Below, piece by piece: positions 13,186-24,007 of a stretch of DNA of 64,000 nucleotides. Each line of letters starts with the position of its first letter. Position 1 is the stretch's first letter. The notes beneath the pieces are model-generated. The model had not been told where the DNA came from. It was given only the letters and a program-made list of their open reading frames with translations, and searched no databases. The DNA is from Escherichia coli. Lineage in GTDB: Bacteria; Pseudomonadota; Gammaproteobacteria; Enterobacterales; Enterobacteriaceae. Location: the NCBI RefSeq assembly GCF_044647545.1, contig NZ_CP172818.1; one strand, written 5' to 3'. The translations under genes were made by a program, and so were the position numbers.

Positions 13186-15609
13186 TTAAAATCTGAATGT
13201 CATATCGAATTCAACGTATAAGTTGTGTTCTCTGTCACCGTCATAAGGTCGTTTTTCCCAGCGTAGCGTTGCGCCAGCATCAATCACGTCATTCCAGCTA
13301 ATACGTTGCCCGTAGCCGAGTTGGGTGACGACATCCGTGCCATAATGTTTTTGCCAGGAGGCACCAACACCTGCGCTGAAGATTTGCTCCCAGCTATTTT
13401 CATAGCTACGCCATAACAAATGACTTGCCTCAAATGCCGGAACAATATCGAACGTTTTTATAGGGTTGTAGTATGGAGTGTCGTGTTCTGTATTTTGTTC
13501 GTAATACAGATTGGGTAGGAAATCGACAATCAAATATGGTGAAGACCAGATGCGTTCCTGACCCTCAAGTGAGACTTCCTGACGCTGGTTACTGTCGGAA
13601 AAATCAGTGAAAGCCCAGGAGACACCGTACTTACGCCGCTCATTTTGATACCAGCGAACATAAGCCTGAGCACTGTTGCCTGTAACACCATTTTTCATTG
13701 CCCGTAATGGAACGCGGTGAGAGAGGCGTTCCAGTTGCGAACCAATACGCCAGTTATCATTAAAATCATACCAGCCAGATAGGCGCGCGCCGGGTTTATG
13801 CTCATGATTGAAAACGCGTTCAGCGTACTCCGCCTCGAGCCAGATATTACGTGACCGCCACTCAACACCCGCCAGCCAGTCGCGAACAATCCCTTTTCCT
13901 TCGCTAAATTGTCCATCGGCATAACCGAATCCAGCAAAACCGCGCCAGTTATCCTTCAGCGGTGGTGAATAAACGATGGTGGTTAAGTCGACATCATGTT
14001 TACCACTATCCGGGCCTTCGGCATCAATTCCTGTTGAACCAGCTATACGAAGCTCTGCAAGATTATGTACATCAACCGCACGTTTTAAACGTACAACGCC
14101 GGGATCTTGCGGTTCACGTTCGACAACATCGTGCGTTAAGACAGCTGCCTGCTGCCATTCTTGTAACGTTAATGCTGTCCATGCTTGTTCAACCTCCAGA
14201 TTAATATTACGTGGCTCGATCACTTCTGCTTTTTTTAATTCATTTTCTGCTGCACGAGGCCAACCGCGGGCTTGTAACACACTCGCGTAATCAATGCGCA
14301 GTCCCTGATTTCCTGGTGCGTTATAAGCAAGCTCTCTGGCTATCATTTCAGCCTGAGGAAGATCATTACTATATTTTGCTACGGTTGAGAGAAACGAATG
14401 CCCCTGTAACCAGGTATCATTCGGGATGCTCGTAGGCGTGCCCATTAACCGAAGGAAAGGCGGCGAAGTATTAATGGTATGTTGGGTGACAGTTAGCGCG
14501 CCGGGATAATTTTCACTCTCCAGGTGGCTGTAAAAGAGATCCGCAAGTTCTTCATCGGATAAATCCGGGGCAATGGTCTCCTTGTGATAAAAGAGCTCTG
14601 TCATTATTGACTGTGCTTTTTTTGGCTGATGTTCTTTGAGATAAGCCGACGCAACCCAATATTGCGCCCAGGGTGGAATAATTTGCCCCGTCTTTTTTAA
14701 ACGCTGATAGTGAGAAATAACGTCTTTATAACGATCGCGAGTTAATAACGCGCCAAGATGATCAACCTGAATACGCTGGTACTGGGCAGTGCGGTCAGGG
14801 TTATCATACCAAAGAATTTCTAATGCAGCGTATTGGGCGAGGGCGCGATCGGCAATGGCATAACGTTCACTTTCACTGCGCGTAGGCATAAACGACAGTC
14901 TGACCAGTTCGGCATGAATATCAGCGCGAATATCTGGCGTTAAATTGGCATCGTCAATCGCGGCAGTAAGTTGATTATTCCGTAATGCCTGCACGTATTC
15001 TGTGGGATATTGTTGCGTTAAGGCATTTTCAGGTAATGATCCTGTCATCGCCCGTAATTCATCCTCATGCCGCCCCGCCAGTTTATAGATATAGGCTTCT
15101 GCGAGTAAATTAGCTTTGTCCGGTGCTCCAGAGTTAAGCTGCTTAAGTTTAACCAGCGCAGAATCATAGTGACCCGCATCTGCCAGGGTTAAAATTTGTC
15201 CCCGTTGATAATCCTTATTTTGCGACTCCAGAGAGAGTGCCTTTTGCCACAGTGTAAGCGAGTTTTGCCATTGTTGCAGGTTACGATAAGCGACGGCGAC
15301 AGCTGCATAACCACGCGCTGGTAATTGCTGATGACGGTAGCGGTTGTAAACGGTAATAACCTGTTTATCTTGCCCGGCCCATAAGGCAATCTGTAACCAG
15401 TCAGCAATTTGGTTATTACTGAGAGCTGATTTTTGTGCAAACCATAACAAAGCTGGCTGAGTATTTCCCTTGCGAGCTTCGATAATCAATGCATCATAGG
15501 CATTATTAACAGCACTCTTCGCCGCGGGACTCGCTGCTAAAAATGCGGCAGTAAGAATTTTCAAAGCCCATTTGGTTTTCGGGCACCTTTTTCTGCTACT
15601 TGAATACAT
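13186..15609 (-). CDS. pgaA: PNAG export outer-membrane porin PgaA (TPR plus beta-barrel)
   Basis: ORF 807 aa with signal peptide; recognised as PgaA. Confidence 0.93.
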   Translation of the reverse strand: MYSSSRKRCPKTKWALKILTAAFLAASPAAKSAVNNAYDALIIEARKGNTQPALLWFAQKSALSNNQIADWLQIALWAGQDKQVITVYNRYRHQQLPARGYAAVAVAYRNLQQWQNSLTLWQKALSLESQNKDYQRGQILTLADAGHYDSALVKLKQLNSGAPDKANLLAEAYIYKLAGRHEDELRAMTGSLPENALTQQYPTEYVQALRNNQLTAAIDDANLTPDIRADIHAELVRLSFMPTRSESERYAIADRALAQYAALEILWYDNPDRTAQYQRIQVDHLGALLTRDRYKDVISHYQRLKKTGQIIPPWAQYWVASAYLKEHQPKKAQSIMTELFYHKETIAPDLSDEELADLFYSHLESENYPGALTVTQHTINTSPPFLRLMGTPTSIPNDTWLQGHSFLSTVAKYSNDLPQAEMIARELAYNAPGNQGLRIDYASVLQARGWPRAAENELKKAEVIEPRNINLEVEQAWTALTLQEWQQAAVLTHDVVEREPQDPGVVRLKRAVDVHNLAELRIAGSTGIDAEGPDSGKHDVDLTTIVYSPPLKDNWRGFAGFGYADGQFSEGKGIVRDWLAGVEWRSRNIWLEAEYAERVFNHEHKPGARLSGWYDFNDNWRIGSQLERLSHRVPLRAMKNGVTGNSAQAYVRWYQNERRKYGVSWAFTDFSDSNQRQEVSLEGQERIWSSPYLIVDFLPNLYYEQNTEHDTPYYNPIKTFDIVPAFEASHLLWRSYENSWEQIFSAGVGASWQKHYGTDVVTQLGYGQRISWNDVIDAGATLRWEKRPYDGDREHNLYVEFDMTFRF

Positions 15610-15850
15610 CCTGTATTACTCCATGTATTGCCAAAATCTCTCTCTGTATCTAATTACAGGTAACTGAAACGAAAGATATTTTTTTTGCACATCATAATCC
15701 GTTATTAAACGCGGAAGAGAGACGTGAATTGTTGATGATGAGAAGAAGAAATGATGAGTAGAGTATCCATATAAAATCCTTTTCTCGCCCGAAAATCCAT
15801 TCCAATGATGAGGATCTTCAGGAATACGGCATAAATCCCAATGCCTTTTT
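15610..15850 (-). promoter_or_regulatory. pgaABCD long 5' leader with multiple GGA (CsrA-type) motifs
   Basis: The minus-strand transcript sequence contains repeated GGA motifs (AAGGAU, UGGAAUGGAUUUUCG, AUAUGGAUAC), including one over the Shine-Dalgarno next to the start codon. Confidence 0.65.
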
Positions 15851-16198
15851 CAAAATAAATTAGGATTAAAATAATTAAATCAGTAAATTCCGATGCATGA
15901 TATCGGATTTTTCGAAAGTCCTGATGAAATGCAGCGTTACTGTACTCACGGATTCAATTGTTATTCCTAATATATCTATGAATTAATGTTTTATAAGGAT
16001 TTCCTTATAACCATTTATATGTATTTGCAAGCCTGTCTTGTCGCGAAGAATGTATAAAGCACTAAGGTAATAATAATTGCGGTCTGCAACTATCATCATT
16101 GGTATTGTTTGTGGTGGATTTTTATATTGACAACAGTACAGTTCTTATATCTATTAATGACAGAAAGGGATCTACAACCTACAGATTGGTGTAGCTTT

Positions 16199-17617
16199 AT
16201 GGAAAAAGACTATTTGGGAATTAGTAGTACTGTATTAGTGAGTTTATTGTTTGGGCTTGCGTTGGTTTTGGTGAATAGTTGGTTCAATCAGCCAACCGTT
16301 GAGGAAGTTGTTCCACGATCAACCTATCTGATGGTTATGATTGCTTTATTTTTTATCGATACTGTTGCATTTATTTTTATGCAGTTGTATTTCATTTATG
16401 ACCGTAGGCAATTTTCAAACTGTATACTTAGTTTGGCTTTTCTAAGTTGTTTGATTTACTTTATTAAAACCGTCATTATCATTCAGCAAATTATTGAGGG
16501 GCGTTTGACAAGCAGTGTTGTTCAAAATGACATTGCAATTTATTATTTGTTTCGTCAGATGAGTTTGTGCGTATTAATATTTCTGGCATTGGTAAATAAA
16601 GTTAGTGAAAACACAAAACAGCGCAATTTGTTTTCCAAAAAAGTGACTTTGTGCATAACTTTGTTTTTTGTTCTTGGGGGGCCGATAGTTGCTCACATAT
16701 TTTCTAGCCATTATGAGAGCTACGATTTACACATTGCCGAGTTAACCAATGAAAATGGTCAGGTGGTTTGGAAAGCCTCATATGTTACCATAATGATTTT
16801 CATGTGGTTAACCTTGCTTTCGGTTAATCTATACTTTAATGGTTTACGCTGTGATATCTGGAACGGGGTGTCGGTGATTGCTTTTTGTGCCGTGCTGTAC
16901 AATATCTCTCTGTTATTTATGAGCAGGTATAGCGTGTCCATTTGGTATATTAGTCGCACTATTGAAGTAGTCAGTAAGTTAACCGTTTTGGTAATTTTTA
17001 TGTGCCATATATTCAGTGCGCTACGAGTAACAAAGGACATTGCACATCGCGATCCCTTAACCAATATATTTAACAGAAATTATTTTTTTAATGAACTGAC
17101 GGTTCAATCAGCATCGGCCAAAAAAACACCTTATTGCGTCATGATTATGGATATTGACCACTTCAAAAAAGTCAACGACACCTGGGGACATCCGGTTGGC
17201 GATCAAGTGATAAAGACAGTGGTGAATATCATTGGGAAAAGCATACGACCAGATGACCTTTTAGCGCGCGTTGGCGGCGAAGAGTTTGGCGTCTTGCTGA
17301 CGGAGATCGATACTGAATGTGCGAAAGCTTTAGCGGAAAGGATTCGGGAAAATGTTGAACGTTTAACTGGCGATAATCCTGAATACGCCATACCACAAAA
17401 AGTGACGATTAGTATTGGCGCTGTTGTAACGCAGAAAAATGAGTTAAACCCTAAGGAGATCTATCAACTGGCTGATAACGCACTTTACGAGGCGAAAGAG
17501 ACCGGGCGTAATAAGCCGCTGTCGCCAGTTGTCGACCTCCGCTTGGGGCTTCTCATCCCCCCGGTGTGTGCAATATACGAAAAAAAAGCCCGTACTTTCG
17601 TACGAGCTCTTCTTTAA
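16199..17617 (+). CDS. dgcT: Membrane-anchored diguanylate cyclase DgcT/YcdT (GGDEF domain, GGEEF active site); C-terminal tail runs into the serX terminator
   Basis: ORF track 16109..17617; MEKDYL... start at 16199; GGEEF motif in ...LARVGGEEFGVLL...; N-terminal multi-TM region. Confidence 0.85.
   Translation: MEKDYLGISSTVLVSLLFGLALVLVNSWFNQPTVEEVVPRSTYLMVMIALFFIDTVAFIFMQLYFIYDRRQFSNCILSLAFLSCLIYFIKTVIIIQQIIEGRLTSSVVQNDIAIYYLFRQMSLCVLIFLALVNKVSENTKQRNLFSKKVTLCITLFFVLGGPIVAHIFSSHYESYDLHIAELTNENGQVVWKASYVTIMIFMWLTLLSVNLYFNGLRCDIWNGVSVIAFCAVLYNISLLFMSRYSVSIWYISRTIEVVSKLTVLVIFMCHIFSALRVTKDIAHRDPLTNIFNRNYFFNELTVQSASAKKTPYCVMIMDIDHFKKVNDTWGHPVGDQVIKTVVNIIGKSIRPDDLLARVGGEEFGVLLTEIDTECAKALAERIRENVERLTGDNPEYAIPQKVTISIGAVVTQKNELNPKEIYQLADNALYEAKETGRNKPLSPVVDLRLGLLIPPVCAIYEKKARTFVRALL
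17585..17612 (-). terminator. Rho-independent terminator downstream of serX
   Basis: Minus strand reads gagctcgtacgaaagtacgggc followed by TTTTTTTT, immediately 3' of the tRNA; it overlaps the last codons of the ycdT ORF. Confidence 0.7.
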
Positions 17618-17620
17618 ATA

Positions 17621-17708
17621 TGGCGGTGAGGGGGGGATTCGAACCCCCGATACGTTGCCGTATACACACTTTCCAGGCGTGCTCCTTCAGCCACTCGGAC
17701 ACCTCACC
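17621..17708 (-). tRNA. serX: tRNA-Ser (anticodon GGA)
   Basis: Reverse complement reads GGTGAGGTGTCCGAGTGGCTGAAGGAGCACGCCTGGAAAGTGTGTATACGGCAACGTATCGGGGGTTCGAATCCCCCCCTCACCGCCA: long variable arm, CCA end, anticodon loop cuGGAaa. Confidence 0.93.
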
Positions 17709-17902: not shown

Positions 17903-18880
<978 letters not shown>

Positions 18881-22207: not shown

Positions 22208-22597
22208 TTAGAATTCATCATGCGCCAAATCGCCCGTACTTAATAACGCCTGATTTATCTGGCGACGATTTAGTGCTTCTTCAGTTTGAATCAGTGCAAA
22301 GACGACAGTTTTTTCGAAGTCTCTTTTCAACGGGAATAAAAAAGTCTGGAAAATAACGTCCTGATTGACCGTTATAGTGATCCAGCTTCCCCATCGTGCA
22401 CTGGGCCTTTCATTAATCGTTAAGTTACCCGTATAGTCACTTTCCCATTTATCACTAAAGGCTCGGTAAAAATCATGGCCAATAGATGAAACAGTATGGT
22501 CAGTTAACAATCCCGGGACTTCTACCTCAACGGCGTGAAGATTCCCTGCGGCGAACAGAAATTCTGCCGCCACAATCCAGCGTAAATAACGTTTCAT
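22208..22597 (-). CDS. csgE: Curli assembly/transport protein CsgE
   Basis: ORF 129 aa with signal peptide; recognised as CsgE. Confidence 0.94.
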
Positions 22598-22601
22598 GGC
22601 T

Positions 22602-23252
<651 letters not shown>

Positions 23253-24007
23253 GATGAAACCCCGCTTTTTTTTATTGATCGCACACCTGACAGCTGCCTC
23301 TAAAATAGAAGCACCAGAAGTACTGACAGATGTTGCACTGCTGTGTGTAGTAATAAATCAGCCCTAAATGGGTAAAATATAAAACTAATGGATTACATCT
23401 GATTTCAATCTAGCCATTACAAATCTTAAATCAAGTGTTAAACATGTAACTAAATGTAACTCGTTATATTGAAATGTTAATCTTAAGGTTTTATTAAGTT
23501 TAGAAATGATAGAAAAGTTGTACATTTGGTTTTTATTGCACAATTTTAAAAAATCATACAAATGGTGCTAACTTGCTAATAATGCATATAAAAAATATTT
23601 CGGTGTAGTCCTTTCGTCATGTAAAACGTTCTTGTTTTTTCTCTACACCTCCTTGGACAATTTTTTACTGCAAAAAGACGAGGTTTGTCACGGCTTGTGC
23701 GCAAGACATATCGCAGCAATCAGCGACGTGCAAGAAGAATGGCTGTCTGGTGATTTTTGATTGCGGAAAACGGAGATTTAAAAGAAAACAAAATATTTTT
23801 TTGCGTAGATAACAGCGTATTTACGTGGGTTTTAATACTTTGGTATGAACAAAAAAAGAAAAATACAACGCGCGGGTGAGTTATTAAAAATATTTCCGCA
23901 GACATACTTTCCATCGTAACGCAGCGTTAACAAAATACAGGTTGCGTTAACAACCAAGTTGAAATGATTTAATTTCTTAAATGTACGACCAGGTCCAGGG
24001 TGACAAC
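23253..24007. promoter_or_regulatory. csgD-csgB divergent intergenic regulatory region (csgDEFG and csgBAC promoters)
   Basis: ~750 bp AT-rich non-coding region between divergent curli operons; the only ORF in it (23720..23914) is low-complexity and judged spurious. Confidence 0.8.

Follow-up and report, generated by a model that had tools for sequence, protein, structure and literature searches.

The pgaA–dgcT interval and its diverged copies

The window analysed here, a stretch of 64,000 nt, is a segment of the E. coli chromosome that runs from putA to the flg genes. Within it, pgaA (13186–15609, minus strand, following the RefSeq annotation of matching genomes) and dgcT (ycdT; 16199–17566, plus strand, with the RefSeq start at the ATG at 16199) face away from each other. 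The gap between them covers 15610–16198, that is 589 bp (586 bp in K-12 MG1655), according to the RefSeq annotation of matching records and of K-12. An earlier note on this DNA had placed about 590 bp of non-coding sequence between the two genes, and its coordinates proved to be exact. Positions 15400–16400 are 100% identical to many complete genomes, in which RefSeq annotates pgaA and dgcT on either side.

As comparators, we used two deeply diverged copies of the whole dgcT–gap–pgaABCD module, referred to as island type and lineage X, which together with the typical lineage of the window make up three deep lineages. The island type is present in ∼99 complete E. coli genomes, and its PgaA and DgcT are ∼80% and 78% identical to those of the window, respectively. 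Examples are E. coli strain 571 (L016; NZ_CP183117.1, 1105921–1124551) as well as L011, L017 and L018. In strain 571, the module is flanked by IS5, IS3, IS1, inovirus Gp2-like genes and hsdR. Some genomes have two matching places and may therefore hold both copies of the module. Lineage X is a metagenome contig (CEAQ01000242.1; L067) whose PgaA is 79% identical to that of the window. Identity to the window at fourfold sites served as the neutral baseline, with values of 0.54 for pgaA and 0.60 for dgcT in the island type, and of 0.525 and 0.71, respectively, in lineage X. A scan of a genome collection with the PgaA N-terminus returned only two loci, one of them a divergent E. coli and the other a contaminant contig. 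The plasmid-borne pga operons of Enterobacter, Plesiomonas and Klebsiella were rejected as comparators, as their PgaA proteins are only 37–40% identical and they lack a comparable leader; the regions upstream of these operons showed neither GGA enrichment nor a divergent cyclase gene.

The GGA-rich leader of pgaA

The 5′ untranslated leader of pgaA spans 15610–15846 on the minus strand and adjoins pgaA on its 5′ side, on the pgaA strand, within the pgaABCD–dgcT locus as annotated in RefSeq. We delimited it by alignment to K-12, where the transcript starts 234 nt 5′ of the AUG and the leader carries six CsrA sites (PMC4052769, PMC7652899); the start at 15846 is assigned by homology. Because an A run is A8 instead of A5, the leader is 237 nt long in the window instead of 234 nt. 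Besides this 3-nt longer run it carries four substitutions, which leaves 230 of the 234 K-12 positions identical (∼98%). On the pgaA-sense strand we found eight GGA motifs, at +9, +44, +49, +68, +79, +147, +225 and +236 from the inferred start (first G at 15838, 15803, 15798, 15779, 15768, 15700, 15622 and 15611, respectively). When aligned to the published leader, all eight coincide with GGA motifs of K-12, and no difference between K-12 and the window touches any of them. The earlier note had described multiple GGA motifs in the pgaA-proximal ∼240 nt, one of them on the Shine–Dalgarno (SD) sequence, and had matched them to the known CsrA-repressed leader. Both points held, the motif at +225 being the GGAG of the SD and the leader being orthologous to that of K-12.

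The two motifs closest to the gene lie in putative CsrA sites recognised by their motif and position. One of these, AAUACAGGAUGUA (15604–15616, minus strand; GGA at 15611–15609, +236), overlaps the pgaA AUG and is invariant in the three deep lineages. The other, ACAUGGAGUAAU (15615–15628, minus strand; GGA at 15622–15620, +225, as part of GGAG), sits on the SD, 9 nt before the AUG, and is also invariant in all lineages. The SD and AUG sites are the two CsrA sites needed for translational repression (PMC4052769, PMC7652899). The block ACAUGGAGUAAUACAGGAUG at 15628–15607 was identical in K-12 and in every allele examined, with the exception of a single variable base, the U after GGAG, which is a C in some island and lineage X alleles. 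Further upstream, the GGA at +147 (AACGGAUUA; 15698–15700, minus strand) is kept in the typical lineage and in lineage X, and is missing from island alleles, which have GGG instead. The GGA pair at +44 and +49 (UUGGAAUGGAUU; 15796–15803, minus strand) lies 5′ of the two 5′-proximal published sites and is absent from the published CsrA sites as described in PMC4052769. Its first member (+44/45) is kept in all three lineages, its second in the typical and island lineages only, being missing in lineage X. At the very 5′ end, an inverted repeat would form a stem-loop, GGCAU-UGGGAUUU-AUGCC (15828–15845, minus strand), with the GGA at +9 in its loop. We folded the typical and island versions (−6.7 kcal/mol in the window, −5.4 in the island allele), and the GGA was in the loop in both; in lineage X the stem-loop is conserved in sequence. 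This element might act as an additional CsrA site or as a 5′-end stabiliser, and the extra motifs at +9, +44 and +49 could likewise have roles.

Between these elements lies the anti-terminator hairpin at +61 to +107 (15740–15786, minus strand), with a predicted energy of −6.0 kcal/mol versus −6.4 for K-12. The motifs at +68 and +79 both fall within its left arm (+61 to +81), where the two 5′-proximal CsrA sites of K-12 are located, and the right arm forms the start of the C-rich rut site (PMC4052769, PMC7652899). The rut tract at +82 to +140 (15707–15765, minus strand) is rich in C and poor in G, with 20 C, 3 G and 15 YC dimers, and contains no G at all from +91 to +120; it matches the C>G bubble described at +50 to +130 of the K-12 leader (PMC4052769). 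In K-12, the hairpin is melted by CsrA, upon which Rho ends transcription within the leader (PMC4052769, PMC7652899); this CsrA-induced, Rho-dependent attenuation of the pgaABCD leader was reported by Figueroa-Bossi et al. (2014). In the window, the pgaABCD transcript would begin near 15846 from a weak, NhaR-activated promoter at ∼15847–15915 on the minus strand, and CsrA binding to the GGA sites of the left arm would open the hairpin at +61 to +107. As the C-rich rut tract would be exposed by this opening, Rho would terminate transcription inside the leader.

The core helix of the hairpin, AAGGA:UUUCU, is invariant in all lineages, and identity over the whole element was 0.81 for the island type and 0.85 for lineage X. 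A covariation test of the hairpin across the three lineages found no pair changed on both sides, and slid registers still paired at 82%. With one arm rich in purines and the opposite one in pyrimidines, such shifted registers lose little pairing. Given the lack of compensatory changes and the behaviour of the slid registers, support for the hairpin rests on the published mutational work. Folding of the whole leader revealed no extra stability relative to shuffled sequences (z = 0.04), and an Rfam covariance scan of 15300–16500 with E-values up to 10 returned chance-level hits only (best E at least 1.1, far below gathering scores), with no Rfam family covering the pgaA leader in this range. Thermodynamic folding predicted only the motifs at +9, +225 and +236, and partly +44, to be unpaired. 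The earlier note had taken about four GGA motifs in single-stranded context as the minimum. Eight motifs are indeed present, but only three to four are predicted to be unpaired, a borderline result. We consider that this rule was mis-set, because the published mechanism hinges on CsrA melting a helix that includes two paired sites.

All eight motifs are kept in 8 of 8 complete-genome alleles and in every allele of ∼95–100% identity among 21 distinct metagenome leader alleles. Those at +9, +44/45, +68, +225 and +236 are common to all three lineages, whereas the motif at +79, which belongs to the 5′-proximal published pair, occurs only in the typical lineage and is absent from both the island alleles and lineage X. 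Since the motifs at +79 and +147 are absent from other lineages, individual sites are not indispensable. Island alleles have gained GGA motifs at +58 and +190, and their total is still 7–8 versus 2.7 expected. In the typical–island alignment, 21 of the 24 motif bases are identical versus ∼72% of positions elsewhere in the leader; per nucleotide, the extra conservation of the motifs over the rest of the leader thus appears weak, and their turnover and survival across lineages would be a suggestive sign of constraint only. One tentative reading, which we hold with more doubt than conviction, is that CsrA operates on the pgaA leader through more sites than the six that are mapped, and through a more changeable set of them. 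It builds on the unmapped motifs at +9 and +44/+49, which have persisted under near-saturating silent-site divergence, and on the replacement of +79 and +147 by +58 and +190 in the mobile copy. If this were true, selection would act on the number and spacing of sites rather than on single ones, and the dgcT–pgaABCD cassette would carry its entire control region along as a self-contained, CsrA-plugged module.

Could the motifs be a mere by-product of base composition, with the resemblance to a CsrA operator being coincidental in this allele? Mononucleotide shuffles give 2.7 motifs against the eight observed (P = 0.0014), and such a count ranks among the highest 1.4% for 252-nt windows on either strand of the 64 kb. 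Dinucleotide shuffles average 4.95, so that eight is reached with P = 0.045 only. The enrichment is therefore real but moderate, and marginal against dinucleotide shuffles; together with the mere three to four motifs predicted to be unpaired, this leaves the compositional explanation some footing. However, the sequence is that of the K-12 leader, and experiments on the latter have demonstrated that CsrA binds and regulates it (PMC4052769, PMC7652899), and the antisense strand of the leader has only three GGA. Moreover, five motifs survive in three lineages near silent-site saturation while lost ones have been replaced, and the distant plasmid pga operons, with two, three and five GGA, are not enriched. 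We therefore give this explanation next to no credence. It is also very improbable that pgaA is controlled by translation-coupled attenuation through a short leader peptide, for which the candidate would be a 21-codon open reading frame (ORF) with its AUG at +77 (15770). This frame is open and of the same length in the typical and island lineages, and its AUG overlaps the GGA at +79. On the other hand, substitutions are distributed 4/3/5 over the three codon positions and change 6 of the 21 residues, a pattern without any coding signature. In addition, a tract so rich in pyrimidines and poor in G is expected to contain few stop codons from its composition alone. The leader peptide at +77 was rejected.

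Proposed promoters of the two genes

We place the pgaA core promoter at 15847–15890 on the minus strand. Its hexamers are weak, and we infer either TTTAAT-N16-TATTTT or TTTACT-N17-CCTAAT. It is 100% identical to K-12 and 83–86% identical to lineages whose fourfold sites are only 52–60% identical (0.83–0.86 for the island type, 0.86 for lineage X). A scan for consensus promoters and terminators recovered neither the pgaA nor the dgcT promoter, which for pgaA was expected because this promoter is activator-dependent. Two plus-strand ‘terminators’ reported by the same scan were discarded, since they represent the 5′ leader hairpin and the palindrome of the NhaR region, read on the wrong strand.

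NhaR binds 5′ of the single pgaA promoter (PMC7652899), and the consensus TCgaAAAAatCtA has been proposed for it (PMC6307784). Upstream of the −35 region, at 15889–15915 on the minus strand, we predict an NhaR-type T-N11-A box, TCGAAAAATCCGA (15915–15903), and an overlapping palindrome, TCCGAT-N7-ATCGGA (15889–15907). The box fits the consensus at 10 of 13 positions and its 13 nt are identical in all three lineages; TCGAAAAATCCGA is thus a candidate NhaR box. The segment from −90 to −36 that includes it was 0.80–0.82 identical in the island type and 0.76 in lineage X.

On the other side of the gap, conservation pointed to a dgcT promoter at 16127–16155 on the plus strand, composed of a −35 element TTGACA (16127–16132), a 17-bp spacer and a −10 element TCTATT (16150–16155). 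Across three lineages, TTGACA and TATCTATTAAT, which includes TCTATT, are conserved at a distance of 17 bp, although the intervening sequence has diverged. If TTGACA-N17-TCTATT is indeed the dgcT promoter, transcription would start near 16162 and the 5′ UTR would be ∼37 nt long. The predicted 5′ UTR and start codon (16162–16203, plus strand) include GGA motifs at 16168–16170 (AAAGGGAU) and 16201–16203 (AUGGAA). The AAAGGGA motif of the UTR is kept in all lineages, and so is the GGA near the start, though shifted. Folding of this UTR indicated no extra stability compared with shuffles (z = −0.05). ycdT has been listed as a direct target of CsrA that is bound in vitro (PMC5389547, PMC3971182), and its expression is described in the literature as very weak. 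In the rightward direction, the predicted promoter would drive dgcT from a short, GGA-bearing 5′ UTR that is reported to bind CsrA.

Several observations concern dgcT itself. For an E. coli chromosomal gene it is unusually polymorphic: between the window and K-12, amino-acid identity is 92.5%, while the neighbouring pgaA reaches 98.1%. In the intergenic region, most complete genomes share no more than 90–95% identity with the window, and the mosaic patterns of the alleles suggest recombination. At 17510–17620, the 3′ end of dgcT lacks 50 bp compared with genomes that are 100% identical in the flanks (e.g. CFSAN061771). This removes the stop codon together with the 15 codons before it, and the frame is extended by 33 codons, ending at 17617 immediately ahead of a tRNA gene, which gives a predicted DgcT of 472 aa instead of 455. 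Directly downstream lies tRNA-Ser (anticodon GGA; 17621–17708, minus strand), followed by ghrA at 17990. In K-12, dgcT is followed by IS3D, the ymdE pseudogene and ycdU, none of which is present in the window.

Variant alleles of the leader and promoter were also encountered. A K-12-type metagenome contig (PPYF01006904.1, L087; pgaA ATG at index 1058) has a clean deletion of ∼129 nt covering leader positions +27 to +155, which removes the GGA motifs from +44 to +147, the hairpin and the rut tract and may be natural or engineered. Having lost the hairpin and rut, this leader should escape CsrA-induced Rho termination. Strain CUWW11 (L017) carries a 21-nt tandem duplication, CCCGTAGTCCTTCCCTTTTGG, early in its island-type leader, which is ∼255 nt long. 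IS1 has inserted repeatedly into the pgaA–dgcT intergenic region (DETEC-P61, NT1F31 and EAEC 55989). DETEC-P61 (L009) has lost dgcT; measured upstream from the pgaA ATG, its match to the region stops after ∼107 nt, and IS1 sets in at ∼160 nt. In NT1F31 (H90), IS1 lies within an island-type allele, and in EAEC 55989 it has taken the place of the upstream half of the pgaA promoter (PMC4287979). A 382-bp contig labelled ‘Tannerella forsythia ATCC 43037’ (contig049, NZ_JUET01000049.1; L012) contains the K-12-type E. coli pgaA promoter, leader and first codons, and is almost certainly a contamination of that assembly. In metagenome contig ERZ791741.2256 (L026), unrelated low-GC sequence is joined to a K-12-type leader at about +41, reflecting either an assembly chimera or a rearrangement.

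The AT-rich spacer and the interval as a whole

The 352 bp of the interval distal to pgaA have a GC content of 31.0%, compared with 49.8% for the window, which places them among the lowest 0.8% of 352-bp windows. This agrees with the earlier note, which had called the remaining ∼350 bp upstream of ycdT very AT-rich. The AT-rich tract continues for ∼900 bp into dgcT at 35% GC. The distal part is not uniform and consists of four parts: the pgaA promoter with the NhaR-type box, the predicted dgcT promoter, the short dgcT UTR, and a central spacer of ∼180 bp between the divergent promoters (15937–16119), which we delimited from the three-lineage comparison. GC content of the spacer was 29–32% in all eleven alleles measured (typical and island). 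Its identity to island alleles is 0.57, equal to that of the fourfold sites of the flanking genes (0.54–0.60), and it is 79 bp shorter in lineage X. The spacer thus appears to evolve neutrally, without sequence constraint, and to be partly dispensable. In contrast to the spacer, the promoters, the SD–AUG block and the hairpin are 0.70–1.00 identical across the deep lineages; for the last 37 nt of the leader, the values were 0.84–0.86 in the island type and 0.70 in lineage X. Within this otherwise neutral spacer, a short block at 15977–15994 (minus strand, −131 to −148 from the pgaA start), ATAAAACATTAATTCATA, is identical at 17 of 18 positions between the typical and island types and absent in lineage X.

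Two alternatives bear on this distal part. The earlier note had pointed to a candidate ORF start at 16109 within the AT-rich stretch. An in-frame TTG is indeed present there and no stop codon interrupts the frame between 16109 and the ATG at 16199 in the window, such that dgcT could begin at this TTG, its protein being 30 residues longer and part of the ‘intergenic’ DNA being coding. As a start, however, this codon did not stand: all records consulted have the RefSeq start of dgcT at the ATG, an in-frame TAG precedes this ATG by 13 codons in island alleles, the window differs from K-12 and from most other alleles by a 1-nt indel at ∼16115, and position 16109 lies upstream of the conserved TTGACA-N17-TCTATT predicted promoter. 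We rejected it on the grounds of the promoter position and the island TAG, and a start at the TTG is exceedingly improbable. A more serious alternative, and one compatible with our main explanation, is that the distal ∼350 bp mainly serve as a platform on which H-NS or another nucleoid protein silences pgaABCD and dgcT. Low GC content is a point in its favour, both in extent, as the tract runs 900 bp into dgcT, and in that the diverged island alleles retain 29–32% GC despite the lack of sequence conservation. There are also four near-matches to the H-NS motif TCGATAAATT versus 1.6 in shuffles (P = 0.07), but this excess follows from base composition, and low GC is what one would anyway expect between the genes of an acquired module that is AT-rich. 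From the literature, a reporter just 3′ of ycdT was placed in an ‘H-NS-rich region’ (PMC4390576), and a full hns deletion is said to raise biofilm formation 4.7-fold (data not shown in PMC6307784), whereas PGA was only weakly affected in an hns::Tn10 mutant studied earlier (PMC6307784). Our text-level literature search found no statement on H-NS occupancy of the pgaA–dgcT interval. Considering further that the centre looks neutral and that 79 bp of it are missing in lineage X, we regard a mainly silencing function as a genuine possibility that falls somewhat short of even odds. The view of the earlier note, that this stretch is regulatory DNA bound by nucleoid proteins, would in any case be too coarse, since half of it is probably promoter and activator DNA and the other half seems unconstrained.

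Taken together, with a probability of about 90%, we interpret the interval as a bidirectional control region of two co-functioning biofilm genes, in which the leftward leader is a multi-site CsrA operator. UTR length, the six CsrA sites and the hairpin/rut/Rho mechanism are documented for K-12 (PMC4052769, PMC7652899), as is activation of the pgaA promoter by NhaR (PMC7652899). At the level of sequence, the window allele has every defining feature of the CsrA-controlled K-12 leader. It carries the K-12 region nearly unchanged, and the elements of this region are under purifying selection. The interval is the already known pgaA–ycdT control region of E. coli, real but ordinary, and its presence in the window adds nothing new to the known picture. 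The region matters because production of the biofilm adhesin PGA in E. coli hinges on it. Its leader is a textbook case of one RNA-binding protein that affects translation, transcript elongation and stability of one mRNA. The modest value added here is comparative: both promoters, the NhaR-type box, the SD–AUG block, the hairpin core and the 5′ hairpin are constrained across three deep lineages, whereas the central spacer is not. Only this deep-lineage footprint, the turnover of GGA motifs and the mobile copy of the module with its own control region are mildly new.

Among known systems, the pgaABCD leader of K-12, whose translational repression by CsrA was reportedly described by Wang et al. 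in 2005, shares with the window the locus, the strand arrangement, the SD and AUG sites, the hairpin arms at +61 to +107 and the C-rich rut tract. The difference is in four substitutions, two of which fall in the upper hairpin and change GGACACUCUG to GGAUACUCUA. With the promoters activated by the LysR-type regulator NhaR (nhaA, osmC and pgaA), it has in common a putative T-N11-A box, here at −57 to −69, and weak hexamers. The palindrome is perfect in the window (TCCGAT-N7-ATCGGA), while K-12 has TCCGAA; a footprint of NhaR is said to have been published by Goller in 2006. On the dgcT side, the comparison is with the diguanylate cyclase mRNAs ycdT (dgcT) and ydeH (dgcZ), which are reportedly repressed by CsrA according to Jonas et al. 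in 2008. The gene is the same as the former, and GGA motifs are present in the predicted UTR and at the start codon. For ycdT, only one match to the consensus ANGGA is given in PMC6028588, whereas we count two (AGGGA and AUGGA). The H-NS-silenced csgD–csgB region, which also lies within the window, resembles the pgaA–dgcT interval in being long divergent intergenic DNA of ∼30% GC with adjoining biofilm genes. The most AT-rich stretches of the window are found at ∼22500–24000 (down to 25% GC in 352-bp windows), including the csgD–csgB area, and not in the pgaA–dgcT gap. Unlike H-NS-silenced regions, the pgaA–dgcT centre has no conserved sequence.
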